From the NCBI GenBank assembly GCA_965216875.1, contig OZ244207.1, positions 544,001 to 608,000 of the forward strand: a DNA stretch of 64,000 nt, read 5' to 3'. Both the position numbers and the translations under genes were made by a program. Source of the DNA: Rubripirellula sp. (GTDB lineage Bacteria; Planctomycetota; Planctomycetia; Pirellulales; Pirellulaceae). The notes below the pieces were generated by a model that had not been told where the DNA came from, made no database searches, and saw only the letters and a program-made list of their open reading frames with translations. Shown piece by piece: positions 48,212 to 64,000 of the stretch (positions are counted from its first letter, which is position 1; every line of letters starts with the position of its first letter).

Positions 48212-48259
48212 TAGTCCTGGATGGAATCGAACCATCGTTTCCTGTTTGTAAGACAGGTG
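48212..48259 (-). pseudogene. 3' half of tRNA-Val(UAC)
   Basis: CCTGT CTTACAA ACAGG, GATGG TTCGATT CCATC, CAGGACT-A; D arm and 5' acceptor strand missing. Confidence 0.75.
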
Positions 48260-48262
48260 AAT

Positions 48263-48698
48263 GAAGTTTGAAGCGTGAAGTTCGAAGTTTGAAACGAAGT
48301 TCGGTAGATTGTTGGCATGAAAAGTGACTTGCCTGACCGGACATTTGCGTTTTCCGAGCGAATCGTGCGACTCTGTCTGGCACTGGAGGATGAAAGCGAT
48401 GTCGCTTCAACTCTGATGAGGCAATTGCTTCGGTCGGGTACATCTATCGGCGCGAATGTGGAGGAAGCTCAGGCAAGTGAAAGCAAGCGTGACTTCGTTC
48501 ACAAGTATTCGATTGCAGCTAAAGAGGCTCGCGAAACACATTACTGGCTGCGACTGCTAGCCAAGACCGAGGTCATTCCGCCATCTCGCCTTGAACCACT
48601 CACTGCTGAAGCCAACGAACTGGTCGCAATCCTGACGACAATCTGCAAGAAGAACCGGTGACAATCTTTCAAACTTCGAACTTCACCCTTCAAACATC
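48263..48698 (+). mobile_element. Heptamer inverted-repeat cassette carrying four-helix-bundle gene 1
   Basis: 32-bp IR 48263-48294 / 48667-48698 (30/32 match) around ORF 48317-48661. Confidence 0.6.
48317..48661 (+). CDS. Four-helix bundle protein (23S rRNA IVS protein/TIGR02436 family)
   Basis: DLPDRTFAF, QLLRSGTSIGANVEEA, SKRDFVHKYSIAAKEARETHYWLRLL. Confidence 0.92.
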   Translation: MKSDLPDRTFAFSERIVRLCLALEDESDVASTLMRQLLRSGTSIGANVEEAQASESKRDFVHKYSIAAKEARETHYWLRLLAKTEVIPPSRLEPLTAEANELVAILTTICKKNR

Positions 48699-48702
48699 CA
48701 AG

Positions 48703-48773
48703 CACGTCCCCAAGGATTTGAACCCTGACTTACTGGTTTGGAATCAGCAGTGCTACCGTTACACCAAGGACGC
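48703..48773 (-). tRNA. tRNA-Trp(CCA)
   Basis: GCGTCCT/GGGACGT-G, loop TTCCAAA, T-loop TTCAAAT. Confidence 0.8.
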
Positions 48774-48981
48774 GGGTAAAGTTTGAATTGAGAAGGGTGA
48801 AGTTAGAAGGCGAAGTATCTTCCGCTCATTTCACACTTCAAAATTCCTACGTCGAACTTCCAAGCGCCTCCCGTGTGGAAACGCTCCCAGAATAGGCTTT
48901 AGGTATTAGGTGATTAGACTCTAGGTAAAAGCTGCCTTCTTGCCTGCAGCCTAAACCGCTATGGTCTAAACACCTTCCAAG

Positions 48982-49026
48982 TGACGTGAGCGGGAATCGA
49001 ACCCGCGAACTCCTGGCTGAGAACCA
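48982..49026 (-). pseudogene. 3' half of tRNA-Glu(CUC)
   Basis: TGG TTCTCAG CCA, GCGGG TTCGATT CCCGC; 5' half replaced by a heptamer hairpin. Confidence 0.65.
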
Positions 49027-49131
49027 TAGTGAGACTTCAGGGATCAGGATTCAGACTTCAGAAGTGACCTATTGTCCGACCTGAAGCCTGAAGCCTGAAG
49101 CCTGAAGCCTGAAACCTGCAGCCTGAATCAG

Positions 49132-49203
49132 TACCGCATGGGAGTTTCGATCTCCCTCCTGCTGTTAGAAAGACAGCCGACCTAGCCAGTAGTCGAATGC
49201 GGC
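49132..49203 (-). tRNA. tRNA-Glu(UUC)
   Basis: GCCGCAT/ATGCGGT, GCTGT CTTTCTA ACAGC, atypical T-loop ATCGAAA. Confidence 0.75.
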
Positions 49204-49308
49204 GAAGAAAGGCTTTGGGCTCTAGACCATAGGAAAGACGATCAGGTTCGAGCTAGAGCCTAGAGCCTAGAGCCTAGAGCCTGAGGACTAAAGCCTGCGA
49301 AGCCGAAG

Positions 49309-49383
49309 CGCCGAGGACAGGAATCGAACCTGTGTTTGCCTGGTTCAGAGCCAGGTGCAACGACCAACAGTTGCCGCCTCGGT
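49309..49383 (-). tRNA. tRNA-Gln(CUG)
   Basis: CCGAGG/CCTCGG, CCTGG CTCTGAA CCAGG, ACAGG TTCGATT CCTGT. Confidence 0.8.
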
Positions 49384-49421
49384 GTACGGAAGTTTGAAGT
49401 CGGAAGTTCGAAGTTTGAAAG

Positions 49422-49493
49422 CACGGGTGGCAGGATTCGAACCTGCATACCACTGCTTCAAAGGCAGCTGGCTTACCGTTAGCCAACACCCGA
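49422..49493 (-). tRNA. tRNA-Gln(UUG)
   Basis: CGGGTG/CACCCG, loop CTTTGAA, GCAGG TTCGAAT CCTGC. Confidence 0.85.
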
Positions 49494-49548
49494 GTGTCTG
49501 CGTTGAACGTTTCAAACTTCTAGCTTCCCACTTCTAACTTCCGAAAGG

Positions 49549-49621
49549 CTCCGGCGGATGGGCTCGAACCATCAATCGTCTCCTTAACAGGGAGCCGCCC
49601 TACCGATTGGGCCACACCGGA
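49549..49621 (-). tRNA. tRNA-Asn(GUU)
   Basis: TCCGGTG/CGCCGGA-G, loop CTGTTAA. Confidence 0.87.
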
Positions 49622-49627
49622 GTATCA

Positions 49628-50048
49628 TCAGGCTTCAGGGATCAGGTTTCAGACTTCAGGATCTAGGGGCGAAGATGAGAGACTACAGAAAACTGCGTGC
49701 GTTCGAATTGGCGGATCAGCTTGCAATCGCTGTCTACAAGTGCACGTCATCTTTCCCGAAAGAGGAAATGTTCGGACTGACATCTCAACTTCGACGCGCC
49801 GCTGTCTCCGCACCATCCAACATCGTCGAAGGAAGTGCAAAGTCATCACAAGCTGACTATGTTCGATTCCTCGAAATCTCCTACGGCTCTGTTTGCGAGG
49901 TTGAATATCAGCTGTCACTCGCACAACGCCTGTCGTATCTCGATGAACAAACAGCAACGGAGGTGATCGGCGTCGCCAATGAAGCCGGACGAGTACTCAA
50001 CGGCCTTCTTCGCTCACTGAAGTCTGACTCCTGAAGCCTGAAGTCTGA
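49628..50048 (+). mobile_element. Heptamer inverted-repeat cassette carrying four-helix-bundle gene 2
   Basis: TCAGRCT-type IR 49628-49659 / 50017-50048 (27/32 match); right arm overlaps the gene's stop codon. Confidence 0.6.
49675..50034 (+). CDS. Four-helix bundle protein (23S rRNA IVS protein family)
   Basis: MRDYRKLRAF, FPKEEMFGLTSQLRRAAVSAPSNIVEG, FLEISYGSVCEVEYQL. Confidence 0.93.
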   Translation: MRDYRKLRAFELADQLAIAVYKCTSSFPKEEMFGLTSQLRRAAVSAPSNIVEGSAKSSQADYVRFLEISYGSVCEVEYQLSLAQRLSYLDEQTATEVIGVANEAGRVLNGLLRSLKSDS

Positions 50049-50051
50049 CCA

Positions 50052-50122
50052 AGCGCCCAGCGAGAATTGAACTCGCGTCTTCTGCATGGCAAGCAGATGG
50101 GTTACCACTACACCATGGGCGC
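50052..50122 (-). tRNA. tRNA-Gly(GCC)
   Basis: GCGCCCA/TGGGCGC-T, TCTGC TTGCCAT GCAGA. Confidence 0.88.
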
Positions 50123-50212
50123 AAAATGCATCACAACCAGATTGTCAAAGATCGGATCAGGCTTCAGGTCTCAGTCTTCAGACTTCAGTTTTCTTGCTGA
50201 AGTCTGACAAAG

Positions 50213-50283
50213 AGCACCGAGTCGGATTCGAACCGACGTCCCCTCGTTACGACGGAGGGATCTTCCCACTAGACGATCAGTGC
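50213..50283 (-). tRNA. tRNA-Thr(CGU)
   Basis: GCACTGA/TCGGTGC, loop GTCGTAA (31:39 mismatch), GTCGG TTCGAAT CCGAC. Confidence 0.72.
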
Positions 50284-50427
50284 TGGAGTCAGGTGTCAGG
50301 CTCCAGGCTCCAGGTTCCAGGTACTAGGCTTCAGGTTTGAGGTTTCTGTTCCTTGCTGAAGTCTGAAGTCTGAAGTCTGAAGTCTGAAGCCTGAAGCCTG
50401 AAGCCTGAAGCCTAAAGTCTGCCCAAG

Positions 50428-50500
50428 TGGGACCGGTGAGAATCGAACTCACATGAGTCGGTTTAAGAGACCGGTGCATTACCTTGTCTGCCACAATCCC
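50428..50500 (-). tRNA. tRNA-Lys(CUU)
   Basis: GGGATTG/CGGTCCC-A, loop CTCTTAA. Confidence 0.85.
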
Positions 50501-50531
50501 AAATTGTGTTTTTGTCGTTGATTCGTTTCAG

Positions 50532-50604
50532 TCGGCGTGGCGGGAATTGAACCCGCGACCGTCGCCTTATAAGGACGCCGCTCTCACCCCTGAGCTACAC
50601 GCCG
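50532..50604 (-). tRNA. tRNA-Ile(UAU)
   Basis: CGGCGTG/CACGCCG-A, canonical D arm, loop CTTATAA. Confidence 0.82.
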
Positions 50605-50616
50605 ATGTGTAGCAAG

Positions 50617-50637
50617 TGGGGCCGGAGAGATTCGAAC
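50617..50637 (-). pseudogene. Displaced 3' end of the split tRNA-Lys(UUU) (att junction)
   Basis: Minus strand GTTCGAATCTCTCCGGCCCCA completes the T-stem (GAGAG) and acceptor (GGGGTTG) of the 5' part at 62716-62773. Confidence 0.85.
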
Positions 50638-50676
50638 CTGTCTCGTTGCCAACGGAACTTCTCACTGACTCTGGAG

Positions 50677-50748
50677 TAGGATTGCAGGGACTCGAACCCC
50701 GACCCAACCGGTTAAAAGCCGGTGATGCTGCCGTAACACCTCAATCCC
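50677..50748 (-). tRNA. tRNA-Lys(UUU) carried by the element
   Basis: GGGATTG/CAATCCT-A, ACCGG CTTTTAA CCGGT, CGGGG TTCGAGT CCCTG. Confidence 0.85.
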
Positions 50749-50788
50749 AAATAAAAAACCCAGTGCCGTCGTGTGACACCGGGTTTTG
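50749..50788 (-). terminator. Intrinsic terminator-like hairpin immediately upstream of the element tRNA-Lys
   Basis: Minus strand AAAACCCGGTGTC-ACACGAC-GGCACTGGGTTTTTTATTT. Confidence 0.55.
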
Positions 50789-51086
50789 TTGTTTCCAGCA
50801 ACAAAACGCCAACGTCACCGACGAAGCGGATACCAATCCAATCCATTCGCACCGCAACTGCGGGCGAGCGAATCGCTATTCAGATTCTGTTGTGTCGATT
50901 GCATTGGTATTGACCGCTACTTCTCTCGGTTTAGTGATTTTCGTTTGTCGTCCAATCTCAGGCCGACGGAACAATAGACCAGCGAGCGAAAAGAAGGTTC
51001 GCGTCGCTGACAGGAATAGAGATGCTTGGGGCGATATGGTTATTTCACGGTTTTCTGAAAACCGGGCAAAGTCACTTGGTAGCTGC

Positions 51087-52061
51087 TCATTCAGCCTCAT
51101 CATTCGGATCGTAGTCCAGCGATTGGAGATTCATCCCTTCAAGCAATGGTCGCGGATACCAAGCAGCGATACCAAACGCGTTTCCGTCGGTGTCAAAGCA
51201 TCCAGGACCGCCTAGCTTGTAGCCTGACTCGAAGTCTGGGTCGGCTTCAAATCGGCTAAGTATCACCCCAAGAAAAAAAGGCATGTGGGGGACTTCCATG
51301 ATCCGAAGGTCGAATCGAAAACTAAACTCACCCTGAAACGGGAGTTCGCGTCGAAGGATGTAGTTGCCGTTTGTTGTCGTTGCCGACACCAACTCAGACA
51401 CGGGGAACATAAAGAATTCCAGATTGTATGCCGTTGACGTTGGCAACCCGGCATACAAGGGATGATGCCAGAGGTCACCGGGTCGAAACGTCTCAGCGTG
51501 TTTGCCTCCGCGTTCGACGAATTTATCAAGCCCTTGAAATATCAATCCGCAAAGCGGTCCAGAGGTGACGTTCACAGAAGTGGGGGCTTTCAGGCCAACA
51601 CCCCTTATTTGCTCAAGTTCCCGGTTGTACCCAGACACAATCGGTCGACCGGAACTCGAAAACTGAACAAAGCCGCCCATGTGAAGGCTTAGCTTGACCC
51701 GGTCGCTGACAGTAAAAGTGGCGGATTCGTGTAGCTTCTGTATCGACTGCTTCTGCGAATAGTCGTAGGGGATTCTTAGGACCAGTCCATCGGTTACCGG
51801 ATGATATGGGACAGACAAATGAAATCCGTCCCTCAAGAATCCGATACGCGCAATAAGCCGCTCACGACCGTCTTCGCCTTCAACGGCAACACGGTAGCCT
51901 TCCCCAATGTGCTTTCTCACTTTTCGAGAACTTTGACCGACCGCCTCTACAGCGCGGCGCAGGCGAGATTTGGATACTCCGATCGCACCCGCGTAATACT
52001 GCAAAAGCCAATCCTCATTGGGATCGATATTGTCTGGGATATCCGAAATGATCATGCGCAC
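51087..52061 (-). CDS. Hypothetical protein with N-terminal DUF3606-like domain
   Basis: IDPNEDWLLQYYAGAIGVSKSRLRRAVEAVG resembles DUF3606; the rest is unrecognised. Confidence 0.65.
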   Translation of the reverse strand: MRMIISDIPDNIDPNEDWLLQYYAGAIGVSKSRLRRAVEAVGQSSRKVRKHIGEGYRVAVEGEDGRERLIARIGFLRDGFHLSVPYHPVTDGLVLRIPYDYSQKQSIQKLHESATFTVSDRVKLSLHMGGFVQFSSSGRPIVSGYNRELEQIRGVGLKAPTSVNVTSGPLCGLIFQGLDKFVERGGKHAETFRPGDLWHHPLYAGLPTSTAYNLEFFMFPVSELVSATTTNGNYILRRELPFQGEFSFRFDLRIMEVPHMPFFLGVILSRFEADPDFESGYKLGGPGCFDTDGNAFGIAAWYPRPLLEGMNLQSLDYDPNDEAE

Positions 52062-52081
52062 GAACCAAATAACTCAGAGTA

Positions 52082-52672
52082 CTAGAGACCGACCATGCGA
52101 TTCCAGTCAGCAACATACATCTCGATCCGATGAAACTCACCAGGCAACAGCAGTCGGTTGTGAGCCATAAAGTTCCGGGCCTTTTCAAGCTCGTCAAATC
52201 GTTGCTTCAACCAATGCTGCGTCGGAATCAGGTCTGAGAAATCCTCCCAGTTGTTGAGGATGATGTCGGCAAGGTGTCCAAATTGCACGAATCCCAGAAC
52301 GTCACGCTTCTGGCCTTCGAGCCACGAGTTGGTGTTCGCGTCTTCCTGACGTGCTTCCGCAAACTCACGGATCTTCTTTGTCACCTTATTGTCCCACCAA
52401 TCATCTCCATACTGCTCTTGGAGGCGTTGCGTGATAAGGGATCGCACAGAATTCTCGAAGCAGTAGACCAAGGAATAGAGTCGTCCCATTTGTAACGCTT
52501 CATTGCGAAGGTCAATGCTAAAGGGATCCAGTGTTTCGTTGAGCAACGCGCGCTCGGATTCAGTCGTGTCGGCCCCAACACGGATGCCGGCAGATCGAAA
52601 GTGTTCCGCGTCCGCTTCGAACATCAGACCTCGAAACATCCAGTCCCTAACTTCCTTTCGTTCAATCTTCAA
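52082..52672 (-). CDS. Swt1-like HEPN domain protein (putative RNase)
   Basis: YCFENSVRSLI, YGDDWW, LEKARNFMAHN (Rx4H). Confidence 0.85.
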   Translation of the reverse strand: MKIERKEVRDWMFRGLMFEADAEHFRSAGIRVGADTTESERALLNETLDPFSIDLRNEALQMGRLYSLVYCFENSVRSLITQRLQEQYGDDWWDNKVTKKIREFAEARQEDANTNSWLEGQKRDVLGFVQFGHLADIILNNWEDFSDLIPTQHWLKQRFDELEKARNFMAHNRLLLPGEFHRIEMYVADWNRMVGL

Positions 52673-53297
52673 TTAAGTGCTCCTTCAGTGATTTAAAGAT
52701 GGCATTATAGACTTCGATATCTTTGGTAGGCGGAAGGTGTATTTCGATGTTGTATCGAAGTCCACCAAACGCCGGCATTTGAACTTGGCTTGTGTCCGCC
52801 TTTGCTTCCTTGTCTGGCGATTCCCCGCGGTCTTCAGTTCCTTGATTCTCATCACCCGTTGGTGCCCCATTTCGTCTTGCGGCATCAAGGTCTGCGAGGT
52901 CGAGCAAAGCAAAAAACGTTTTTGCTTGCTCTTTCGCGACCCTATCGGATGCGTTGTGAAATGACTTAAATTTTCCCTCAATCGAAGCGCGATCCGCTTC
53001 CGTAGGGTTCTCATTGACGTGGAACACCTCTTCGTACGCTTCGTGGAGTGCTTCTGCCATCACCTCACGTGATCGCGATTTGTCGCGGTAGTCATGGTAG
53101 CGCTGCGTTGGACTGCCATCGCCGGTCAAAAACCCGAGGTCCTTAAGCACAGGGATGATCCCCATGTCATTGCTGCTCTTGAAGCCAATCCCCTTGAGAT
53201 GTGCCTGGGAGAATTTCTCTGGCGCGGTACCCTCGATGATCTTTTGCATGATCGCGTGCAGGTTTTTGGTGCTGGTCATGTAGCGTGAAGTCAACAA
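52662..53297 (-). CDS. DUF5343-like protein
   Basis: PEKFSQAHLKGIGFKSSND, LGFLTGDGSPTQRY, C-terminal YNIEIHLPPTKDIEVYNAIFKSLKEHL; overlaps HEPN gene. Confidence 0.75.
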   Translation of the reverse strand: MLTSRYMTSTKNLHAIMQKIIEGTAPEKFSQAHLKGIGFKSSNDMGIIPVLKDLGFLTGDGSPTQRYHDYRDKSRSREVMAEALHEAYEEVFHVNENPTEADRASIEGKFKSFHNASDRVAKEQAKTFFALLDLADLDAARRNGAPTGDENQGTEDRGESPDKEAKADTSQVQMPAFGGLRYNIEIHLPPTKDIEVYNAIFKSLKEHLIED

Positions 53298-53576
53298 TTT
53301 GATCTCCCTTCTCGTTCTCGTGGTATGGAGGGATTGAATAACTATTCAGCGAGTACAGACCCAGTCTACATTTATCTGGTTCGCGCCCGCAATCGACCGC
53401 GTATGGCGGGAGATGGCCCGGATATCGACCACTCCCCGTCAATGGATTTAGAACGAGCGTCGATTCTAAATCGTCGGGTTAGGTAGCGGCGGCTGCCGTG
53501 ATGGATCGACGTTCGGCATTGGCTTTCTGCTGGGCGTCGATGCATCGGCCCATTCCCCAGCCGGAAAGCCATTCTG

Positions 53577-54953
53577 ATGATCGAAAACCCATTCTTGCGT
53601 GACATGGAATCCTATCTCTACACCGTAGGCTTTCCGCCGCCTGACTTCCTTGACTTCGCGGATGCGATGGTGCTGCCCAGAATCGACCTGCCTTTCAAGC
53701 AAGCCAGCAAGATCAAGGAAAAGCGATGGGAAGCGACCTGCTGCGCCCACAACCTGATCTACGCGGGGCTCGTCAATCGGACGGTTGCGGACTCCCGTGA
53801 TGGCAAAGGCAAATCACGAGCTCGCGTCTGGGACGCGATCATCAAGGCCGGATTCGCTGATAGATGTACTGGGAGCGAGCAATCCGGCAAAGTGACACGC
53901 TATTACCCTCGTGCCAAACTGCTGCGGCTTCGGAAGCAGTGGAAATTGGATTTGCTGATCGACCTTCAGCTAGAACGCAACACTGAACGTCCACACGATC
54001 CAACGAAGCAAGCGTTGGTCCTCCTGCATAGCAGCAAGGTCGATCCAGTCACAGGGCTGAAGTTGGACGAGTTGGATCAAAAGCAACCGCTGTCTTTTCA
54101 CGACTGGGCAAAGAACGAAGCCGGACCACGGGGGATGCAGAGCGGACTTGAGTACGTACAAGCGATGGAGGATCTGATCGAACGAATCAACCGATCCAAC
54201 CTGCGGCATTCCTGGCAGGCATTTCACGTCAATCCCATGAGCAGCAAGGAAACGGCATTTCAACCCAATTCATGTGTCAGACAGATTCACGTCGGTGAGA
54301 TGTTTCGGGGCACGCGACTCTACTCGTGGTCACTGCTGTCCGGCCAGAGCCTACCGAAAGAAGATCGCAAGCGAATGCTGATCGATGGCGAGCCGGTAGC
54401 CGAGTTTGACTATTCAGGTATGGCGACGCGGATGCTTTACCACCGAACACGTCTGAGAGGGCCCAAGGGCGACGTGTACAAGCCGGACGAATTGTTCCCA
54501 AGGTTTTACGCGTTCGAACCTAGCCCCGAAACGGCCGAGATCGTGCGTGAATTCGGGAAACGGGCCACGAACATCTGCTGGAACGTTTCCAGCCGAGCCA
54601 ATGCAAATTCGGCGATCAGCAAACTGATTACCGATCATCCCGATCGCGACCTGATCGAATCCGTTTTGAAATCGGAGGGGATGAAACGCACCGATGTCGT
54701 GACACGCATCCAAGCAGCCCATCCGAAACTGGCCGAGGATTTCTTTTCAGGAGTCGGAATCGAACTGATGACCGTTGACGGCAGCATTATGCTCCGCATT
54801 CTCGAAACGTTTGCCGACGCCGATAAGCCAGTGCTGGGCATTCACGATTCCATCGTGGTACGCGAATCAGACCGCAGGTTTGCCAGGCGAACGATGAAAG
54901 ACGCTTACCGCCGATTCATGCTTTTTGAGCCCGTGATCAAACGTGTCTATTAG
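53577..54953 (+). CDS. Stand-alone PolA-superfamily polymerase (TV-Pol-like)
   Basis: RLY...QSLPKEDRKRMLIDGEPVAEFDYS (motif A), LMTVDGSIM, VLGIHDSIVV (motif C); no exonuclease domains evident. Confidence 0.65.
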   Translation: MIENPFLRDMESYLYTVGFPPPDFLDFADAMVLPRIDLPFKQASKIKEKRWEATCCAHNLIYAGLVNRTVADSRDGKGKSRARVWDAIIKAGFADRCTGSEQSGKVTRYYPRAKLLRLRKQWKLDLLIDLQLERNTERPHDPTKQALVLLHSSKVDPVTGLKLDELDQKQPLSFHDWAKNEAGPRGMQSGLEYVQAMEDLIERINRSNLRHSWQAFHVNPMSSKETAFQPNSCVRQIHVGEMFRGTRLYSWSLLSGQSLPKEDRKRMLIDGEPVAEFDYSGMATRMLYHRTRLRGPKGDVYKPDELFPRFYAFEPSPETAEIVREFGKRATNICWNVSSRANANSAISKLITDHPDRDLIESVLKSEGMKRTDVVTRIQAAHPKLAEDFFSGVGIELMTVDGSIMLRILETFADADKPVLGIHDSIVVRESDRRFARRTMKDAYRRFMLFEPVIKRVY

Positions 54954-55472
54954 GGTCTTCGTAACTCGTTGCAAAAGCCCGAGTTACGAGTTTTTGGCGG
55001 GGTAATATAGGAATAGAAATCCCGAATAGAAAACCCAACCGCCCCCCGCCCCTCCCTCCGCCCTCCCCAAAGGAGGGCGGAAAGGGAGGAAGCGGAACGC
55101 GGAAACGGATGAATAAGAAACGAACCCAACGTTAGACGTGTTACGGTTGCACGGTAGACGTCATCAGCACGTGGCACGTCCTAGACGCTGTCGGAAGTCG
55201 TAGACCCAACGTCCTGCGTCGGTACGCCTTTTGGTGCCTTATTGGGCGTTCGTGCGTAAAAAAAGATGAACTTTTTTAAGTTGTGCCGCAGCAAGCGTTT
55301 GCGTCAACGCAATATGCGCAATTGACGCGTTTCTGAGCGCATCAACGTGTTTTTCTGGGCGCATAACTCAGGGTATCCAGCGATATAGATGTGCACGGGA
55401 TGATTCATCGTCGAATTGCCCATACACGAACTCGGATCGTGTAGAGCTCTACACGCTAAGACTGAGAGCATC

Positions 55473-56144
55473 ATGCCAAGGTATCGAACGCCCCATTGGA
55501 CCGACGGACGAATCGCGAAGCTGCATGGAAGTGCACTAACCAGACGGTTCGCCAATCTTGCCGAGGTCGCGAATAAGTACCACAGGATATGCGCTGAGAA
55601 TGAGCAGTCAGCTTTGGATTGCGCCAAAAAAGTAGGTGATGCTCTGACCGAGGCCAAGCGTCGGTGTGGTCATCGCAAGAAGTGGTCGAAGTGGCGCAGC
55701 GACAACTTCGCTGGATCAAAAGAGACTTCATGCCACTACATGCGAATCGCTCGTGAATGGAACAATCCCAAAATCCGCGAGGCGATGGCACGCGGTGAGA
55801 TCAAGAGTATCAACCAGTTTCTCGCGGTGCTTCGCAGAAAGGGAAATCCCAAATCGCAAACGACAGCGGAACAACGACACGTAATCAGGCTATTCACGAA
55901 ACTTGCCAAAGATCTGAACTGGGCCGACCAAAACCGTTTGGCAATGCATAGCACGGCCCAGGACGTAATGCCCAAATTGAGTGATTTTTTGCTAGAAGTA
56001 CTGAAGGGGTATCCAGTTCCACATCTGGTCGAGGTTTACCCAGGAGAGTACGAGATCAACTACTACGATGACGGCGATCAAGCTGAGGTGACCATGCCTC
56101 CTGGTATCAAACCACGCACCCAAAAAAGAGCCAAAAACCGGTAA
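55473..56144 (+). CDS. DUF3102-like phage/MGE DNA-binding protein
   Basis: ALDCAKKVGDALTEAKRRCGHRKKWSKW...SKETSCHYMRIA. Confidence 0.65.
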   Translation: MPRYRTPHWTDGRIAKLHGSALTRRFANLAEVANKYHRICAENEQSALDCAKKVGDALTEAKRRCGHRKKWSKWRSDNFAGSKETSCHYMRIAREWNNPKIREAMARGEIKSINQFLAVLRRKGNPKSQTTAEQRHVIRLFTKLAKDLNWADQNRLAMHSTAQDVMPKLSDFLLEVLKGYPVPHLVEVYPGEYEINYYDDGDQAEVTMPPGIKPRTQKRAKNR

Positions 56145-56208
56145 TGGCTAAGGCTACCTATCAGCCGGATTCCTTTTCCATGATTGGTCCTGTGTCTTGG
56201 AATGTGGA

Positions 56209-57279
56209 TCAGGAGTTCTGATAAACTGCACGGCCAACCTTCAGCACATCGCGGCGATAGTCGCGATCCCACCTTGAAAAGCGCTCCATAGTTCTTTCGT
56301 CTTGGTGTGCAGCGAGAACAAGAACAGCACACCAATGGTCGACATCACCCATCGCATGTTTATGTGAATCAGCGAACATCTCGAAAACTTCTTTTGCGCG
56401 AGGCACGGATTTTCTCAATACCGCGTCCAACTCGCCGAGGGTCGAGATTTCGGTTGCTTTGCACGCTGCAAGCAGATCTTCAGAGTCAGGCTGGGCTCTT
56501 GCCGCTTTGAGCTTACTCTTGGACACCGCGTCCATAACATCACGCACAATGCTCGCTTCTTCGCAGTACTGCTCGATCGAAATCGCGTTAATTTCAATCT
56601 TCAGTGTTTTGTCCGCCAACTGCTCGGACACTTCCTTAGCAAGTGATTCTTGCTGCGCCTTTAAGCTCGTAAACTCGTCGTCGGCTAACTCAAACAACCC
56701 TGCAAGTCTCATGAGACGTCGCCGAAACTTGGATGGAACGTCAGATTCGCGCTTGTATTGCAAATGATGGGAAATTGCCGCCCATGCGTGCTGAAGAACT
56801 GTCCTTACCTGAATTTCGCACACCAATCCCACGAACGCATCCCATTCTGGCAACTTCGCCCGAGCATCGTTGAGCGATACGACTAGGTGGACGGACAGAT
56901 ACCCAAACTGATCTGCATCCAATTCCGACGATTTATCAATGCTGCGTGCGTCATCAACCTCGAACTCGTTCCGCAGAATCTTGGTAACTTCATCTACGTC
57001 CTCTTGGTAGTACAGAATCACGCGAGCGCCTGCGAGGTCGGGCAACTCATCAAGCGGGTTCGTGTAGGATTTGCCGGGTCGCTGAATCTTTTCCGCAAAA
57101 CTCTCAATACTCTTTGCACGTGATTCAGTGGTGTGGTGCGGGATCGAGTGTTTCTTTATCAGTTGGAGAATCAGCAATTCGATGCGGCGAGCAAATTCTT
57201 GAATTCGAGGTTGCATCATGCCATAGTCGGCGACCAATTGATCATGATCCGTTGCATTTCTCCGGCGTTTTTTTCCCAT
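56209..57279 (-). CDS. RelA/SpoT-domain (small alarmone synthetase-like) protein
   Basis: SRAKSIESFAEK, DLAGARVI, GYLSVHLVV, EIQVRTVLQHAWAAISHHLQYK. Confidence 0.88.
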   Translation of the reverse strand: MGKKRRRNATDHDQLVADYGMMQPRIQEFARRIELLILQLIKKHSIPHHTTESRAKSIESFAEKIQRPGKSYTNPLDELPDLAGARVILYYQEDVDEVTKILRNEFEVDDARSIDKSSELDADQFGYLSVHLVVSLNDARAKLPEWDAFVGLVCEIQVRTVLQHAWAAISHHLQYKRESDVPSKFRRRLMRLAGLFELADDEFTSLKAQQESLAKEVSEQLADKTLKIEINAISIEQYCEEASIVRDVMDAVSKSKLKAARAQPDSEDLLAACKATEISTLGELDAVLRKSVPRAKEVFEMFADSHKHAMGDVDHWCAVLVLAAHQDERTMERFSRWDRDYRRDVLKVGRAVYQNS

Positions 57280-57698
57280 AGATCCTTTGCTCAACAAGAG
57301 ACTGCAGTTAGGCCCACGGCGGGGATACCAATACTTGTTCCGCTGATGGTCGTAATGTAACAGGGTGCGGCTATAGATGCGAAAGCGCTACGCTGGGGTA
57401 GGGATCGCAGTGGCTCAGTATCAGTATCCGGCAGCGGCACCGCATTCCGCACCGTGATTCACGGGGTCAGCGTCATCCGTGATCCGCTCACGACGATCTA
57501 TAGATGAAACTGGCCATCGGTTCGGAGCTGCGCTAGAAAACGGGTCCAGGTACGCGAGAGATATTCGCGGCCAACGGGAGCGACGCCTAACGCTTTGCCT
57601 TCCGTATTCGCCCGAAGCGTCGCATAGGAAATGCAAACGCCGTAGAGCGCGATTTAGAACGCCTACGCGACGTGTTCTCCAACGAAAGGAGCCAACCG

Positions 57699-58322
57699 AT
57701 GCCGAAACAGAAACCCGTTGCGATCTATGCCCGTGTCAGCTCGCAGAAGCAGGACACCGCCAGCCAGTTGCCGGACCTGAAACGCTGGGCCGATGCCCAA
57801 GACGCGGACGTGCTGTGGTTCGAGGACGAAGTTAGCGGCACGACGATGGACCGACCGCAATGGTCTGAGGTCGCCAAGCTGATTAGCGCTCGAAGGATCT
57901 CAGCCGTTGTTGTTTGGCGGTTGGATCGTCTTGGACGTAACGTCAGCGGGCTTTCCAGTTTGTTCGATGAGATGCGGGCCAAGGGCGTTGATCTGGTCAG
58001 CCTGAAAGACGGTCTGACGTTATCGACGCCAGCCGGACGATTGATGGCTAACGTCCTCGCCAGCGTTGCACAGTTTGAAACGGAGATCAGAGCCGAGCGC
58101 GTGTTGGCTGGTCAGGCGAAGGCGAAAGCGAACGGCAAGACGTGGGGCGGAAGCAAGCCAGGTGTGCGGAAGAAAGTAACGCAGGAACAGATCGATGCGA
58201 TTGAGATGCTGTACGACGAGGAGATGTCTACTGCCGCCATCGCACGAACGGTGAAGCTCGGACGAAACACCGTAGCCAGCGTTATTCGCGAGATTCGAGA
58301 AAACTCCCCTTTTCGTAAATGA
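57699..58322 (+). CDS. Small serine resolvase/invertase with C-terminal HTH
   Basis: IYARVSS, VWRLDRLGRN, TPAGRLMANVLASVAQFE. Confidence 0.92.
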   Translation: MPKQKPVAIYARVSSQKQDTASQLPDLKRWADAQDADVLWFEDEVSGTTMDRPQWSEVAKLISARRISAVVVWRLDRLGRNVSGLSSLFDEMRAKGVDLVSLKDGLTLSTPAGRLMANVLASVAQFETEIRAERVLAGQAKAKANGKTWGGSKPGVRKKVTQEQIDAIEMLYDEEMSTAAIARTVKLGRNTVASVIREIRENSPFRK

Positions 58323-58362
58323 ATGGTGGTTGGCGGCCTGATGCTTGTCATACGTTCCGCGT

Positions 58363-58737
58363 ATGACGAGAGCCAAGAGCCACCGAAACGAACTACCTTC
58401 CAAATACGAGCGGGGATTCCTGAAAGGACTGGACCGACGTACGCAAATCTACGCGCGGCTGACTGCGATACACGATGAAATCGTGGACGATCTGGGCGGC
58501 AAGGATGGGCTATCGCATACGAAGCTCGCATTGATCGAACGCTTCGTATTTCTTGAAGCCGTGATCCAGAAGATGGAACTGGACATGGCCAAGTCCAAGA
58601 CGCTCAATGGCGAGGAGCTTAATCGCTGGATCCAAGGCCTGAACTCAATGACGGGTCTGGCCAAAACGATCGGCTTGGAACGCCGCCAACGAGCGGTCAA
58701 CGTTCGCGACTACGCCAAGAAAAGGGCCGCGTCATGA
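58363..58737 (+). CDS. Putative terminase small subunit
   Basis: Small helical protein overlapping the TerL start (ATGA); call rests mainly on position. Confidence 0.5.
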   Translation: MTRAKSHRNELPSKYERGFLKGLDRRTQIYARLTAIHDEIVDDLGGKDGLSHTKLALIERFVFLEAVIQKMELDMAKSKTLNGEELNRWIQGLNSMTGLAKTIGLERRQRAVNVRDYAKKRAAS

Positions 58738-60137
58738 ATATCGTCCAAGCGATTAAGGATGAAAACCTGATCCAGCCTTTCTTGGGCGATGACTTGAGTT
58801 CTTGGCGTCCATGGGTATCGGCCCTCCGTGTGATGTATGGGTTGCCGTTGTCACGGTCCGATCGCATCCGAGCGAGGAAATGCACCGGACGCGATCCGGC
58901 AGGGATGCCGGCGGAGGGCTTTGATACTGCTCTTTTCCTGACCGGCAGACGTAGCGGCAAGTCGCGTATTGCATCGGTGATCGGTGCATACGAGGCGATC
59001 CTGGCGGGTCACGAGGATCGGCTGTCCAAGGGTGAACAAGGCGTCGTGGCGGTCTGCGCTCCAACGAAACACCAAGCCCAGATCGTGAAAAGCTATCTGC
59101 GTGCGGTGTTTGATTGCGGCTTCCTTCGCCACGAGGTGAGCAGCGATACCAGCGACGGGTTCAGCCTGAACAACGGCAACCGCATCACGATTCTCGCTGG
59201 CGACTGGCGAACGATTCGCGGGTTCACGTTGATCGCCGCCATCATCGATGAAGCTTGCTTTTTCGGATACGACGCAGAGTCAAAAGTCCGCAGTGATACG
59301 GAGCTCGTGCGGGCGATCAAACCGGCACTGGCAACGGTGGGCGGCAAGCTGATCTGTATCAGTAGCCCATACGCCAAGCAAGGCTATTGCTTCCAGCAGA
59401 CGAAGAAGCAGCACGGCAACGACAAAGGCAAAAACCTTGTCTGGTGGGCCCCATCGCAAACGATGAACCCCACGCTTCCGCAAAAGGCAATCGATGACGC
59501 CTTGGCGGAGGATTACGCAGCGGCACGTTCTGAGTATTTCGCCGAATTCCGTGATGACGTGGCCGCGTACATTTCCCGCGAAGTCGTGGAACGGTTGGTC
59601 GTGTCAGGTCGCACGCGACTATTGCCCAGACCAGATACGCGTTACTTCGCTTTCGCTGATATGAGCGGTGGGCGTGGTGACGCATCCGTGTTGGCGATTG
59701 CCCATCGCGAGGACGGCAAGATTGTCCTCGATTCCATCGTTGAATTCAAACCGCCATTTAACCCGATCGACGTGATTGAAACGTTCTGCGACGAGCTTCG
59801 GCGTTACCGATGCGGCAGGGTGATGGGCGACAACTACGCGGCTGAATTCGTCTGCCGGACCTTCAATGGTTTCGGCGTGCGCTACATCAAATGCGAGAAG
59901 CCCAAAAGCGTCCTGTACGCCGAGCTTCTGCCTCACTTATGCGCCGACGGTCTGAGTCTTCTGGATCACCCTCCGATACTAGATCAGATAGCCGGTTTAG
60001 AACGCCGTACACGAAGCGGAGGGCGTGACATTATCGACCACCGACCGGGAGCCCATGACGACGTTGCCAACGCGGTAGCGGGCGTGGTCGTGGCGGCCAC
60101 CAAACGCGGTCGCAAATTCGGAGCCATTTGCAATTAG
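58734..60137 (+). CDS. Terminase large subunit-like protein
   Basis: Walker A GRRSGKS, Walker B AIIDE, ISSP, nuclease DMSGGRGD and HDDVANA. Confidence 0.82.
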   Translation: MNIVQAIKDENLIQPFLGDDLSSWRPWVSALRVMYGLPLSRSDRIRARKCTGRDPAGMPAEGFDTALFLTGRRSGKSRIASVIGAYEAILAGHEDRLSKGEQGVVAVCAPTKHQAQIVKSYLRAVFDCGFLRHEVSSDTSDGFSLNNGNRITILAGDWRTIRGFTLIAAIIDEACFFGYDAESKVRSDTELVRAIKPALATVGGKLICISSPYAKQGYCFQQTKKQHGNDKGKNLVWWAPSQTMNPTLPQKAIDDALAEDYAAARSEYFAEFRDDVAAYISREVVERLVVSGRTRLLPRPDTRYFAFADMSGGRGDASVLAIAHREDGKIVLDSIVEFKPPFNPIDVIETFCDELRRYRCGRVMGDNYAAEFVCRTFNGFGVRYIKCEKPKSVLYAELLPHLCADGLSLLDHPPILDQIAGLERRTRSGGRDIIDHRPGAHDDVANAVAGVVVAATKRGRKFGAICN

Positions 60138-60146
60138 GAGCATGGA

Positions 60147-60659
60147 ATGAACGACAACGAGTTTCGCCGACAGAAGCTTGCCGATTACGAAGCGAGGCAC
60201 AGCAAGCCGGATCATCCGCCCCTGCTCGTCGGTGGCTGGGTGTATTACCCGGATGGAGCCGCACGTGAAAAGAATCCTTGGGCTGGTGCTTGGTGTGAGC
60301 CTGATCCTGATCCGCTAAGTCGAGCGAAAACGATTTTGTTCTATCACGAGAAGCGGTTGGAGTTCGCGGTTACGGAATTCCAGTATCTCAAGAGCAGCCT
60401 GAAAGCTCAGGCCAAGTCCGAATACCTGGGCCGTCCCTGTCCGCCGAATAGCCTGGTTCAACGCGAAGGCATGCGGAAGCTCAAAGACATGAAAAGCAGT
60501 ATCGAGGTCCTTCAACGGCGATTTGAAAAGGCCGAGCAGGAGCTGAAAGAGATCGAAGACAACCACCCATCGTCGAGACGGCATCAACAGCGACGTGATG
60601 CCGAACACCGACAGACTGCCGAGGAGTTCGTCGCTGAAATCAACGACATCGAGATTTGA
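60147..60659 (+). CDS. Hypothetical coiled-coil protein
   Basis: AGGAG upstream; follows TerL in an operon. Confidence 0.65.
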   Translation: MNDNEFRRQKLADYEARHSKPDHPPLLVGGWVYYPDGAAREKNPWAGAWCEPDPDPLSRAKTILFYHEKRLEFAVTEFQYLKSSLKAQAKSEYLGRPCPPNSLVQREGMRKLKDMKSSIEVLQRRFEKAEQELKEIEDNHPSSRRHQQRRDAEHRQTAEEFVAEINDIEI

Positions 60660-61092
60660 AAGGATCGATCCAATGACGTACGTACGCAACGTTAGACAAT
60701 CGCCGAAACCTTTGGAGCGCCCACCGGCTTTGTTTATTGATGAGACCATCTGTGGACCCCGTGCTTCAGGTCGGGAACTGTCTCGCCCATCGCTTCAGTC
60801 GGGACGGCAAGCGACCGGGAGTATCGGGATCGCCATGAATCAGCTTTCGCCTCCCGCGAGGCTTCCCAGTGCCCCGAGGTTTTTCAGTTAGATGCGATCA
60901 CGGCTGCGCATTCGGGGGTGTCCTCTGTGGTTCGTCTCATCTACCCGGAAGTGCCACGCCGCGAGGTGTGCGCTAGCGTAGCCGTAGGGCGGCAAGGTTG
61001 GAGCTTGATCACTCCGATCGGACCAACTAACTGCACGACGGTTGGTCAGCCGCCCTTTTCTCTCCCTGTGTCGTGCGAAAGGTCGTGCAACT

Positions 61093-62739
61093 ATGTCCAA
61101 GAAGCGCAAACGCCTTATCAAGGCTGTTGCTTACCTCCGTCGCTCTACCACAGACCAAGAGGCGAGCCTCGACGAGCAACGTGCAACCATCATCGCCTAC
61201 GCCAAAGCGAACGGATACAGAATCATCCGTTGGTACGAAGACGACGGCATAAGCGGCGATGATACGGAAAAGCGTGTCGGTTTCCTTCGCATGATCGACG
61301 ATGCCACGTCTGGCGAATTCAAATTCATTCTGTGCTGGGACCAGGATCGCTTTGGGCGGTTCGACAGTTTAGAAGCCGGTTACTACATCACACCAATCCG
61401 AAACGCCGGAGTTCAACTGGTAACGGTGAACGAAGGGCCGATTGACTGGAACAACTTTGCCGACCGTTTGACCTACAGCATCAAACAGGAAGGCAAACAC
61501 CAGTTCCTCCGCGACCTATCACGCAATGTCCTGCGAGGGCAAAGCGAGGCGGCGAAGCAAGGAAGTTGGATCGGAAGCCCGCCGTACGGTTATCTCCTAG
61601 AGGGCAACTGCAAGAACAAACGACTGGTCGTTGACGAGCCCAGAATGGCGATCGTGCGACGGTTGTTCAAAGAATACGTAGACGATGGACGTTCGCTTTC
61701 AGAGATTGCCAAACGCCTCACGGACGAAGGCGAGCCAACGCCTAAAGGTAAAAGGCAATGGCGTGGTGACACCGTGAGATTCCTTTTGGCGAATCCGGCC
61801 TACATCGGCACGTTCCGGTACAACACTGCCGGGAGCTCCAAGTACCACAGTTTCAGGCGTGGAGCAATTGCACAAGGCGGTTACCGAGGACGCAAGCCAG
61901 TAGAGGATTGGGTCGTGATTCCGAATCACCACCCAGCCGAGATCGACAAGGACGCCTTCGATCGTGCTCAAGCGATGATCGCAAAGAACCGAAACGGGCA
62001 GACCAATTATCCAGCAGGCGACAATCCGTACATCTTCAGCGGCGTGTTGCGTTGTGGTCGATGCGGTGCGTTGATGATTGGCGACGATGGGAACCGCTAT
62101 CGATGCGGCAATCGTCGAGCGAAGAAACGGTGTTTGGGAACGGTCGTGCGTGAGGACCATCTGCTGGAACATCTGACGCGTACGCTCAACAAGCATTTGA
62201 TCGACGATGATCCTGAAATGCTGGCCGCTGAATGGTCTGCCGATAGATGGGAACTGCGGCCAGAGGATGTCCCAAAGACGTTCGAGCGAATGCGTCGAAT
62301 CATGAAAGGAAACGACGGCAGGGATTTCGCGAGGGACGCGAAGCGACTGCGGGCCAAGATTGCAAAGATTGATACACAGCTCGCAAAGCTGCGTCGCAAC
62401 ATCGGGTACGTCGATGATCCGGCAACCATTACCGTCATCTCAGAGGAGATTGAGAAGCACGAAGAAGAACGCGGTACATTGCAGCGGCAGATCGAATCGC
62501 AGCCAACGGAGATCAACGTCAACTACGCGGTGCTGGACCTGATCGGGGACATGATGCACCTGCATTCCGGCAACAAGGCCGTAGTGCGTCGCGTGGTCCG
62601 AGAGGTCGATCGGATCACCGTTCACACGCATCGACGCGGAAAGGGGAATGGCACGCGACACCGCCTCAAGTCGATAGAAATCACGTGGCTAGGAGTGGGG
62701 CCGACTGCGAGTAAGTCGAACTCTCGCCGAACGGATTAA
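61093..62739 (+). CDS. Large serine recombinase (integrase)
   Basis: AYLRRST catalytic Ser, DRFGR, recombinase domain (PPYGY, NPAYIG), zinc ribbon CGRCG...C...C, coiled coil; C-terminus crosses the att core. Confidence 0.93.
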   Translation: MSKKRKRLIKAVAYLRRSTTDQEASLDEQRATIIAYAKANGYRIIRWYEDDGISGDDTEKRVGFLRMIDDATSGEFKFILCWDQDRFGRFDSLEAGYYITPIRNAGVQLVTVNEGPIDWNNFADRLTYSIKQEGKHQFLRDLSRNVLRGQSEAAKQGSWIGSPPYGYLLEGNCKNKRLVVDEPRMAIVRRLFKEYVDDGRSLSEIAKRLTDEGEPTPKGKRQWRGDTVRFLLANPAYIGTFRYNTAGSSKYHSFRRGAIAQGGYRGRKPVEDWVVIPNHHPAEIDKDAFDRAQAMIAKNRNGQTNYPAGDNPYIFSGVLRCGRCGALMIGDDGNRYRCGNRRAKKRCLGTVVREDHLLEHLTRTLNKHLIDDDPEMLAAEWSADRWELRPEDVPKTFERMRRIMKGNDGRDFARDAKRLRAKIAKIDTQLAKLRRNIGYVDDPATITVISEEIEKHEEERGTLQRQIESQPTEINVNYAVLDLIGDMMHLHSGNKAVVRRVVREVDRITVHTHRRGKGNGTRHRLKSIEITWLGVGPTASKSNSRRTD

Positions 62740-62773
62740 AAGTCCGTCATGCTGCCAGTTACACCACAACCCC
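62696..62773 (-). pseudogene. 5' part of host tRNA-Lys(UUU) fused to an element-derived 3' end
   Basis: GGGGTTG...ACGGA CTTTTAA TCCGT...GAGAG TTCGACT, then TACTCGCAGT CGGCCCC-A. Confidence 0.8.
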
Positions 62774-62881
62774 AAAGTAGGCTTTAGGTATGAGGCGTTT
62801 AGAATTTAGGCATGACAGCTGGACGCTTCGCATCGTTTCTCTCCTTTCAAACTTCACTCTTCCAGCTTCAAACTTCCGCAG

Positions 62882-62953
62882 TGGTAGCCCTGGGAATTGA
62901 ACTCAGCGCGACTCGGTTATCAGCCGAGTTTGGGCAACCAGCCCTCGACTACC
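62882..62953 (-). tRNA. tRNA-Ile(GAU)
   Basis: GGTAGTC/GGCTACC-A, CTCGG CTGATAA CCGAG; atypical D arm. Confidence 0.75.
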
Positions 62954-63064
62954 GTTTGTCAGGCGTCAGGAATCAGGCCTCCGACTTCAGGAGAACTTCC
63001 TGAATCCTGAATCCTGAATCCTGAATCCTGACGCCTGACGCCTGAAGTCTGACTCCTGCATTAG

Positions 63065-63137
63065 TCGGGTGTGTCGGAATCGAACCGCTCTCCATCGTCC
63101 CAAACGAAGTGTGCACAACCATTACACTTCACGCCCG
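63065..63137 (-). tRNA. tRNA-Pro(UGG), partly degenerate
   Basis: CGGG../..CCCG-A, loop TTTGGGA; mismatches in T and acceptor stems. Confidence 0.6.
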
Positions 63138-63186
63138 ATCGTCGACTTCTGACGCCTGATACCTGAAGCCTGAAGTCTGTATAAAT

Positions 63187-63822
63187 GAGTCGGCTTTAGC
63201 GCAAGCTCTATTCCGACTCGGTGATGGCCCTCGAATCAACGCCATTGGCTCCTCGAGGTCTGCACACGCGCGTGTTAAACGCTTCATCACCTTCACCCCT
63301 GTCGTTGATGTCTCCATCGCCCAACAGCAGGCAGTAGTGCAACGAGTCTTCTGGGTTAGGTCCCGAGCCTCCCGTCGGAGACTCGCACCTCGCTCGATCA
63401 GCTTTCTACGTCGGGACGTAGTCCACTGATCCCCTTTCGGGCAGCTCGACCACCTTTCGGCGACCGATGTAGGCACTTCGACTCTGTTACACGTATGACT
63501 TGCTGCCACCTCCCGAAGGAGTCGGCAACTTCCCGAACACTTTATGTGTCATTCAACCCTGACAAGGTTGCGACTGGAACGTTCCACGATAGCCATACAA
63601 ATCCGTGGTCTTTCAGGCAGCACTCCGCTGGTGGGCCAGCGACTCACGCCCTCAGTTACTTGACAGCTTCCAGTACCCACGCGGTTACCTACCGGCTTCA
63701 TCGCCAAGGCTACGACGGATGAACGCCGCTCCTAGGTCAGCCTTTCGTTTATCTCTCTTGCGAGAGCCGGCCACCCGTTCCAGGGCAAACCGGTTTTACG
63801 TCCGAACGACATCACGGACCTA
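63187..63822 (-). ncRNA. Large ornate structured ncRNA, possibly GOLLD-like
   Basis: No credible ORF; many minus-strand stems capped by GAAA, GCAA, GAGA and UUCG tetraloops; long-range closing helices. Confidence 0.7.
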
Positions 63823-63940
63823 TGATTTTAGAAGTGGGAAGCTAGAGGTATGAAAACCTCGCTCGCCCAACTTCAATTGTTCTGTCAATGCATTTTCCTG
63901 CTTTCAAACTTCACCCTTCACTCTTCGAACTTCCGAAAGG

Positions 63941-64000
63941 TGGGCCAGGAGGAACTCGAATCCCCGTCTGCGGTGCTTCAAACCGCCGCTAAACCATCTC
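63941..64000 (-). tRNA. tRNA-Phe(GAA), 5' end outside window
   Basis: GCGGT TTGAAGC ACCGC; 3' CTGGCCC-A. Confidence 0.75.

Follow-up and report, generated by a model that had tools for sequence, protein, structure and literature searches.

The stretch of DNA analysed here (the window) comprises 64,000 nucleotides of a planctomycete chromosome, positions 544,001 to 608,000 of contig OZ244207.1 of Rubripirellula sp., and belongs to a complete 8.26-Mb genome (G000). Many of the 20 large open reading frames (ORFs) scanned upstream of 47 kb match sulfatases, PSCyt1/PSCyt2/PSD1 or DUF1501. ARAGORN placed an array of 14 tRNA genes at 47000-50748 and two further tRNAs at 62699-62953, and an island of 12,084 bp (window 50638-62721) interrupts a tRNA-Lys(UUU) gene of this region at its T-loop. 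Its genes follow the order tRNA-Lys, DUF3606, HEPN and DUF5343, polymerase, DUF3102, RelA/SpoT-like, resolvase, o130, TerL, o170 and large serine recombinase (LSR), as listed in Table 1. Judged from its sequence, we have here an integrative element which is intact and bounded, lacks capsid genes, and carries a large terminase subunit (TerL) of its own together with a candidate small one (TerS). It is one of a large family which is found mainly in Planctomycetota. A preliminary description of the region had listed the polymerase, DUF3102, resolvase, TerS/TerL and LSR genes on the plus strand, and each was found where it had been placed, TerS by fold and position only. It had, however, described the module as one of plus-strand genes and left unmentioned the minus-strand RelA/SpoT-like gene (56209-57297) which lies inside its range.

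Table 1. Features of the island and of its two ends, in order of window position
Feature	Position	Strand	Evidence
Displaced 3' end of target tRNA-Lys(UUU), chromosomal arm of attL	50616..50637	-	Empty sites, flank BLAST
Element-borne complete tRNA-Lys(UUU)	50676..50748	-	ARAGORN; Rfam tRNA 51.4 bits; within empty-site boundaries
324-aa protein with N-terminal DUF3606, cargo	51087..52061	-	Pfam DUF3606 2.3e-10; phrog_10779
Swt1-like HEPN protein, candidate defence gene PDC-M34B	52082..52672	-	HEPN_Swt1 1.1e-10; PADLOC 1.1e-69
DUF5343 protein, candidate defence gene PDC-M34A	52662..53297	-	Pfam DUF5343 1.2e-43; PADLOC 3.2e-76
TV-Pol-type minimal family-A polymerase, 458 aa	53577..54953	+	phrog_4756 1.2e-36; AlphaFold2 model and fold matches
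DUF3102 protein	55416..56144	+	Pfam DUF3102 2.8e-5, 24.8 bits vs cut-off 24.4; phrog_15609
RelA/SpoT-like nucleotidyltransferase, 362 aa, candidate single-gene defence (PDC-S33)	56209..57297	-	RelA_SpoT 5.5e-20; phrog_9640 6e-77; PADLOC 2.5e-19
Small serine recombinase (resolvase/invertase type), directly upstream of packaging genes	57672..58322	+	Resolvase 5.4e-42 and HTH_7; phrog_125
o130, candidate TerS	58345..58737	+	4-nt overlap of its stop with TerL start; HK97-like fold
TerL, ATPase and nuclease	58734..60137	+	Terminase_6N 2.6e-5; phrog_2 3.6e-24 over residues 68-458
o170, conserved small protein with C-terminal coiled coil	60147..60659	+	Follows TerL
Large serine recombinase (integrase)	61042..62739	+	Resolvase 3.2e-25, Recombinase 3.4e-23, Zn_ribbon_recom 3.4e-9
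Hybrid attR tRNA-Lys(UUU), 5' two-thirds chromosomal, 3' end from element	62699..62772	-	ARAGORN; Rfam 24.8 bits

The ends of the island were located by searching window 46500-64000 against 21 genomes (G000 and 20 relatives) for empty sites. The flanks of the array matched relatives, while the island interior found no match there save 37 nt in G402. The two flanks adjoin each other at three places: G406, G402 and, about 24 kb downstream in G000, a paralogous array of tRNA genes (L023). The empty sites of the L023 paralogue and of G402 (L024) read ...GGAGAGATTCGAAC and then directly TCTCGCCGAACGG..., and that of G406 has the same intact tRNA layout in more divergent sequence. The join corresponds to window 50637 to 62722, with which the flank BLAST was concordant. 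A TCGAAC core is present at both junctions (50632-50637 and 62716-62721). The attL and attR sites are alike only in this core and unlike on either side of it, as expected for a serine integrase, and the empty site is rebuilt exactly. The two intact att junctions claimed in the preliminary description are therefore borne out by the empty sites. The range given with them (53577-62739) was too short, as the left end lies at about 50632/50638; a quarter of the element had been missed, and with it the tRNA-Lys(UUU) at 50676-50748 and three minus-strand genes (51087-53297).

Two copies of tRNA-Lys(UUU) were found in the window by ARAGORN, one within the island and the other across its right end. The hybrid at attR scored 24.8 bits in Rfam, which is under the gathering score of 29, and its T-arm and acceptor-stem pairs are broken. 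Since the intact paralogous tRNA-Lys scored 59.6 bits and the element-borne copy 51.4 bits, the element appears to break the tRNA and to carry a spare; the insertion, in other words, is predicted to damage the target tRNA-Lys and the island to supply a replacement tRNA-Lys(UUU). We also considered a simple att duplication as the origin of the two copies and rejected it, because the aligned stretches are only about 70% identical and because the whole of the left copy is internal to the element. An element of the same design was found in a Pirellulaceae metagenome-assembled genome (MAG), L027, where the end AGTAAGTCGAAC abuts the 5' part of tRNA-Lys(UUU), a displaced 3' tRNA fragment lies on the left side, and the element's own tRNA-Lys is 90% identical to that of the window. 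The right junction of L034 is the same as in L027.

The integrase reads across the right boundary. The LSR frame crosses 62721, its last five codons and stop lying in chromosomal tRNA DNA as read from the sequence, and with the gene ending this way (62716-62739) the attP core falls within the integrase gene, at its 3' end. The tail has these 5 residues when the element is integrated; in an excised circle they would give way to 13 others, read from the left end. R33 and S35, the nucleophilic Ser among them, are invariant in 29 LSRs. Several further observations concern the surroundings of the target. The entire tRNA array is duplicated about 24 kb downstream in G000 with its gene order kept (L023 = G000:C1:627000-634000). 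Tandem heptamers (CTGAAGC/CTGAAGT-like, and complements) occur between the tRNA genes at window 46880-50430 and 62770-63190. The tRNA-Ile(GAT) called by ARAGORN at 62881-62953 had no Rfam tRNA match (E<=1, 62600-63100 scanned) and may be degenerate or atypical.

No terminase besides TerL was found in the 8.26-Mb genome. The TerL Walker A residues G71-R72-R73-x-G75-K76, as well as E173, D309, D366 and D442-D443, were invariant in all 43 full-length relatives; we take these residues to belong to the ATPase and nuclease motifs. A PDB search with the TerL alignment returned nothing meaningful. The gene whose stop overlaps the TerL start, o130, was modelled by AlphaFold2 with a pLDDT of 90.6, and the best of 48,161 PDB chains to this model was the HK97 small terminase 8pop_A (Z 8.6, root-mean-square deviation (rmsd) 2.5, 85 aa), the sole chain with Z>=8. 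No Pfam or PHROG match and no Foldseek match at E<=0.001 was obtained for o130, a PDB search with its alignment gave nothing meaningful, and all 27 members of its family, when searched in Pfam, gave scattered single matches only. Combined together, fold and position make a suggestive but weak case that o130 is TerS. The third gene, o170, follows TerL in the relatives as well: a homologue was present after TerL in all 33 loci having both TerL and LSR calls, among the forward ORFs between the two. At E<=0.001 the o170 family numbers 1,574 representatives; the 150 of them that were listed are without exception stand-alone proteins of 147-254 aa. We noticed no consistent Pfam, PHROG or PADLOC match for o170, ESM Atlas scores did not exceed 0.78, and 26 family members gave scattered single matches in Pfam. 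It had been suggested that this ORF (60147-60659) might turn out to be a structural protein, and nothing marks it so.

Using the TerL alignment we found 45 loci in genome contigs and 2 copies in G156, and these 47 related loci were clustered together with the window element. TerL was present in 47 of the 48 loci, LSR in 34, the resolvase in 30 (always on the TerL strand), the polymerase in 8 and DUF3102 in 6, on one strand and in a fixed order. In the family order a left resolvase of about 240 aa comes first, then variable cargo. A second resolvase (about 200 aa) precedes o130, TerL and o170, after which follow a protease-like gene (about 190 aa) and LSR. The protease-like gene is prohead-protease-like (phrog_530/2229/12864, 'head maturation protease', 1e-6 to 1e-9) and occurs in 23 of 33 loci; the window lacks it. 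At E<=1e-10 the search returned at least 2,765 TerL clusters, the closest 64% identical. The hosts are mostly Planctomycetota, and Verrucomicrobiota (Nibricoccus, Lacunisphaera), an Odoribacter MAG, a Spirochaetales MAG and Aminicenantes are also among them. Two carriers, Pirellula staleyi DSM 6068 (TerL 62% identical) and Novipirellula sp. SH528, are cultured. Six relatives are bounded by split yjbQ halves at 9.6-12.5 kb, and L035, L055 and L065 carry an extra intact yjbQ. The cargo of the relatives varies by locus and is often of defence type (TIR, MmeI, Mrr, OLD/AAA_21, HNH, methylases). An insertion sequence (HTH_Tnp_1 and rve transposase) was noticed in the cargo region of one G156 element (L012:14332-15512).

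The window TerL is 53-63% identical to its relatives, whereas the window LSR is 17-21% identical to most of them and 46-47% identical to those of L027 and L034, which occupy the same tRNA-Lys position. Read at the level of protein identities, this is module swapping. Members of this TerL clade are found beside tyrosine integrases as well (L044, L048, L050, L051, L053, L062, L066 and L068-L070), and five of these loci (L050, L066, L068-L070) have primase/helicase genes in addition and resemble phage-inducible chromosomal islands (PICIs). L068, one of the tyrosine-integrase elements, keeps o170. The raw reads of the strain itself (runs X1-X4) contain the locus. As for copies elsewhere, a public run labelled as another organism (X5) contained 42% of the sampled 31-mers of 53577-62739, which suggests a near-identical partial copy; there was no RNA run among the 15 public runs listed for the locus.

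We also examined the island and its relatives for genes of virions. The 11 island ORFs, scanned with Pfam, PHROGs and PADLOC, showed no capsid, portal, tail, lysis, primase-helicase or conjugation family, in agreement with the absence of recognisable capsid, portal, tail, primase-helicase and lysis genes noted in the preliminary description. No capsid, portal, tail or lysis match was seen among 134 ORFs of 19 related loci (Pfam) or among 100 ORFs of >=230 aa from 34 loci (PHROGs), and 88 proteins of related loci gave no capsid or portal match in PHROGs. The structural-type matches among those 88 were three: in L050 a tape-measure-like ORF, in L069 an ORF of 122 aa resembling a tail protein, and in L066 a lysin domain encoded ahead of the integrase gene. 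Each of these loci has a tyrosine integrase. In total 322 neighbour proteins were scanned, and the virion-gene negatives hold within Pfam/PHROG sensitivity. The packaging core recurs in the related loci, and these are not full prophages as far as the 322 proteins show, none of which gave a capsid or portal match. Conjugation or relaxase genes were likewise not seen in the island or in the 19 related loci scanned with Pfam; the alternative raised earlier, that the locus is an integrative and conjugative element, has nothing behind it in the absence of conjugation genes.

Apart from the packaging genes, the island encodes a polymerase which has no Pfam match and for which a PDB sequence search gave nothing meaningful. 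Its earlier assignment to the PolA superfamily is nevertheless upheld by structure. The AlphaFold2 model has a pLDDT of 94.4, the top 50 Foldseek matches are all PolA (probability 1.00, E ~1e-6), and VIA gave Z of 11-13 to Pol I and to T7 and mitochondrial RNA polymerases over about 240 residues within ~125-458 (rmsd ~4). An N-terminal domain of about 125 aa is followed by a putative thumb, the palm and the fingers. The 458-aa protein has the PolA polymerase-domain fold without exonuclease domains. In 36 aligned sequences D278, D299, R324, K328 and D424 are invariant, and so is R264, a candidate for the conserved arginine that a beta-hairpin supplies in TV-Pols; the model also has a long helix at 174-209, which may belong to the thumb of two antiparallel helices. 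The palm has the metal-binding aspartates D278 and D424 (H-D-S motif), with their strands inside the PolA-aligned range 125-458, and the fingers have the conserved Asp D299 and the RxxxK motif (R324, K328). A fingers Asp together with an RxxxK motif is part of the TV-Pol definition in the passages of PMC2579912 that deal with this group, and the modelled protein fits this definition. Its 58 homologues are mostly planctomycete and all without a name. The polymerase is present in 8 of the 48 loci. In a phylum sample of 401 genomes 4 were polymerase-positive; 3 of these 4 have TerL too, and in G016 the polymerase and TerL are 2.2 kb apart on the same contig. The polymerase is accessory and lies outside the conserved core, yet it is tightly linked to the element family; the earlier view of it as part of the module holds for its presence and its linkage, and not for membership of the core.

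What then does such an element do? The most likely reading, about which we are evenly poised, is that of a phage satellite which brings a terminase of its own. The LSR would have inserted the element in the tRNA-Lys(UUU) T-loop, its own tRNA-Lys offsetting the damage, and in the chromosome it may serve the host as a carrier of exchangeable anti-phage cargo (PDC-M34 and the RelA/SpoT-like gene). We infer excision, replication, packaging, helper dependence and the roles of the resolvase and o170 as follows. Infection by a helper phage would lead to excision of the element and then to its replication, here primed or extended by the TV-Pol-type polymerase. The element's own TerS-TerL holoenzyme, with o170 as an accessory, would recognise and cut the element DNA and fill helper procapsids with it, probably as concatemers because 12 kb is far under the usual head size. 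In the next cell the small resolvase encoded next to TerS would cut monomer circles from the concatemer, and the LSR would integrate them. Cre resolves P1 concatemers to monomer circles and provides a model for this role of the resolvase. It is also possible, and we put it forward more tentatively, that these elements form a new satellite class, in which a complete TerS-TerL (with o170 and often a prohead-protease-like protein) replaces the whole motor of the helper, a Cre-like resolvase recircularises concatemers, and exchangeable serine or tyrosine integrases hit essential-type targets, the damage being offset by a spare copy (tRNA-Lys here, yjbQ in relatives).

Several points weigh against a satellite. 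The TerS call is a helical fold match whose Z of 8.6 falls in the chance range for helical proteins, with no sequence-family match, and o170 is without a recognised fold or family. The window TerL is 25-26% identical to annotated phage TerLs, so that it need not be compatible with any portal; among them is the terminase of Virus Rctr16k (KX853514, a 16.7-kb partial phage genome with a tail gene), 26% identical. In the host genome none of Phage_capsid, Phage_portal, SPP1_portal and TerL_ATPase found a match, and Terminase_6N found no second one; any helper would therefore be external. In IMG/VR one of 2.9 million contigs encoded a relative, at 37% identity, and none of 13 whole contigs was circular by terminal overlaps. 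Neither an excisionase or directionality factor nor a pac or cos site could be identified in the island, where a search for repeat, iteron or pac-like arrays gave short two-copy matches only. Finally, neither a helicase nor a replication initiator came to light, and only 8 of the 48 loci have the polymerase.

In a different account the locus is a defence island and its terminase module an anti-phage weapon that competes for or cuts phage DNA or jams procapsids. Such an island would move rarely, by LSR excision together with generalised transduction or transformation, with no directed self-packaging. The cargo of the window element and its relatives does consist mostly of defence genes, neither a pac site nor a helper was found, and IMG/VR has almost nothing of the family; satellites are moreover known to interfere with helper packaging, according to passages of PMC11417361. 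But a weapon fails to explain why the module is always found with integrases and resolvases in bounded elements of 9.6-12.5 kb, or why it co-occurs with tyrosine-integrase backbones, some with primase-helicase. The nuclease and ATPase residue sets, kept in 43 of 43 relatives, are as expected of a working motor, and interference and self-packaging can coexist. We regard this account as unlikely. Spread without any capsid, by vesicles, transformation or mobilisation, with TerS/TerL only trimming concatemers and the resolvases keeping monomers, would agree with the absence of capsid genes from both element and host genome. Tycheposons, which are likewise tRNA-targeting cargo elements, are reported as enriched in vesicles in the passages concerned of 10.1101/2020.12.28.424599. 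An element of this family may also have up to three serine recombinases. It is harder to reconcile capsid-free spread with the prohead-protease-like gene of 23 of 33 relatives, which points to capsid contact, and no conjugation or relaxase gene was seen. To our knowledge, terminases work only on portal-bearing procapsids. The probability that we assign to capsid-free spread is low.

The locus might on the other hand encode a complete small virus, with capsid proteins that have diverged beyond recognition. There are ORFs without annotated function in which they could be sought (o170, DUF3606, DUF3102 and many cargo ORFs in relatives), and a function is known for only about 13% of PHROG families, the other 87% or so lacking one. 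The conserved genes, however, amount to the resolvases, TerS, TerL, o170 (about 160 aa), the protease-like gene of about 190 aa and LSR; each of them is too short to be a portal or a capsid protein of the HK97 fold, and the remainder varies by locus. This makes a complete virus very improbable. We consider a prophage whose structural genes have been lost through decay the least probable of all, even though a terminase, an integrase and a tRNA target are what prophages have. The same short architecture with intact ORFs recurs in 47 other loci from several phyla, the junctions are exact at 9.6-12.5 kb and the TerL catalytic residues are invariant, on which grounds we reject the reading as a prophage remnant; nor was a capsid or portal match seen in the related loci scanned.

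The element may be compared with known systems. As in PICIs/SaPIs, P4-like elements, PLE, PICMI and VEIMEs, we have a site-specific island of about 10-15 kb with no capsid, tail or lysis matches; defence cargo and a packaging-specificity gene (the TerS candidate) are shared with PICIs and other satellites, and some relatives of the same TerL clade have, like PICIs, a tyrosine integrase, some of them plus primase-helicase. Unlike PICIs, the island has a large serine recombinase as its integrase, with one or two extra small resolvases, and no AlpA/Stl-type regulator or pri-rep was recognised in its 11 ORFs (Pfam, PHROGs). Serine recombinases are also described in PLEs and some VEIMEs, in passages of PMC9618062. 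The host phylum, Planctomycetota, differs from those of characterised satellites. The island further departs from other satellites in encoding TerL besides the TerS candidate. PMC10085698 models a number of satellite families, and of these the parts concerned name TerL as a core gene for cfPICIs only, which encode capsid, portal and head-tail connector genes. The island resembles cfPICIs in encoding TerL together with a TerS candidate, and through the prohead-protease-like gene of some of its relatives, and differs from them as no capsid, portal or connector match was found in it or in the related loci scanned. Marine VEIMEs have small-subunit terminase homologues, with the large terminase named as a presumed helper gene, in passages of PMC9618062, 10.1101/2020.12.28.424599 and PMC12822802; a passage of the last also states that 8% of VEIMEs encode terminases, the subunit being unspecified.

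A second set of likenesses comes from cassettes. The staphylococcal cassette chromosome (SCC/SCCmec) and the TV-Pol 'replicative transposons' also combine an LSR and a minimal family-A polymerase on a cargo-carrying chromosomal cassette. The linkage of TV-Pol to resolvase-family genes and its planctomycete members (Rhodopirellula, Gemmata) had already been noted in passages of Iyer et al. 2008 (PMC2579912). In SCC, passages of Rice 2023 (PMC10061031) describe CcPol with an OB-fold partner (MP) and a helicase beside LSR genes, whereas neither helicase nor MP was found in the island (Pfam, PHROGs), and the island polymerase, unlike CcPol, keeps an N-terminal domain. The terminase module sets the island apart from SCC and the TV-Pol transposons alike; the word 'terminase' is absent from the main text of PMC2579912. 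Closest in design are the serine-integrase elements splitting yjbQ, with which the island has in common the core of candidate TerS, TerL, o170 and LSR and the logic of carrying a spare of the broken gene; it differs from them in the clade of its LSR (17-21% identity), in the tRNA-Lys T-loop as target, in its tRNA spare and in the added TV-Pol.

Our literature search, which covered sources other than subscription journals, turned up no account of elements that have TerS and TerL but lack a capsid, and nothing linking planctomycetes and phage satellites. The family is apparently undescribed, as had been suspected beforehand. We know of almost no characterised phages or mobile elements from Planctomycetota. 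A family of at least 2,765 TerL clusters keeps a working-looking terminase, and no shell genes were found with it. If the elements are satellites, a 'bring your own motor' strategy would join the known modes of phage hijacking, and the movement of defence systems in Planctomycetota and neighbouring phyla would be explained; if they replace the whole motor as proposed above, the exchange of defence genes there would run mainly through them. The spare-target trick (own tRNA-Lys, own yjbQ) may show how serine integrases can land in essential-type genes, and the family's serine integrases with their defined att sites may interest genome engineers. As cultured carriers exist, the satellite idea is testable.

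With respect to its cargo, the island carries two candidate defence systems by family matches, PDC-M34 (HEPN and DUF5343) and the RelA/SpoT-like gene. For the DUF3606 protein one relative was found, in L039. The DUF3102 protein is possibly DNA binding, and in 5 of the 6 loci that have a homologue this gene adjoins or is fused to a TGT-like gene. This queuine tRNA-ribosyltransferase-like (TGT/DpdA-like) gene was seen with DUF3102 in five elements, including L049:6535-8079, L060:4642-5652 and L064:6546-7475 (phrog_887, 1e-34 to 1e-36), and the pairing could be a DNA-modification module. Outside the island, an AbiEi antitoxin-like domain (2.2e-9) was noticed in a 476-aa ORF at 17292-18722 on the minus strand, amid housekeeping genes.

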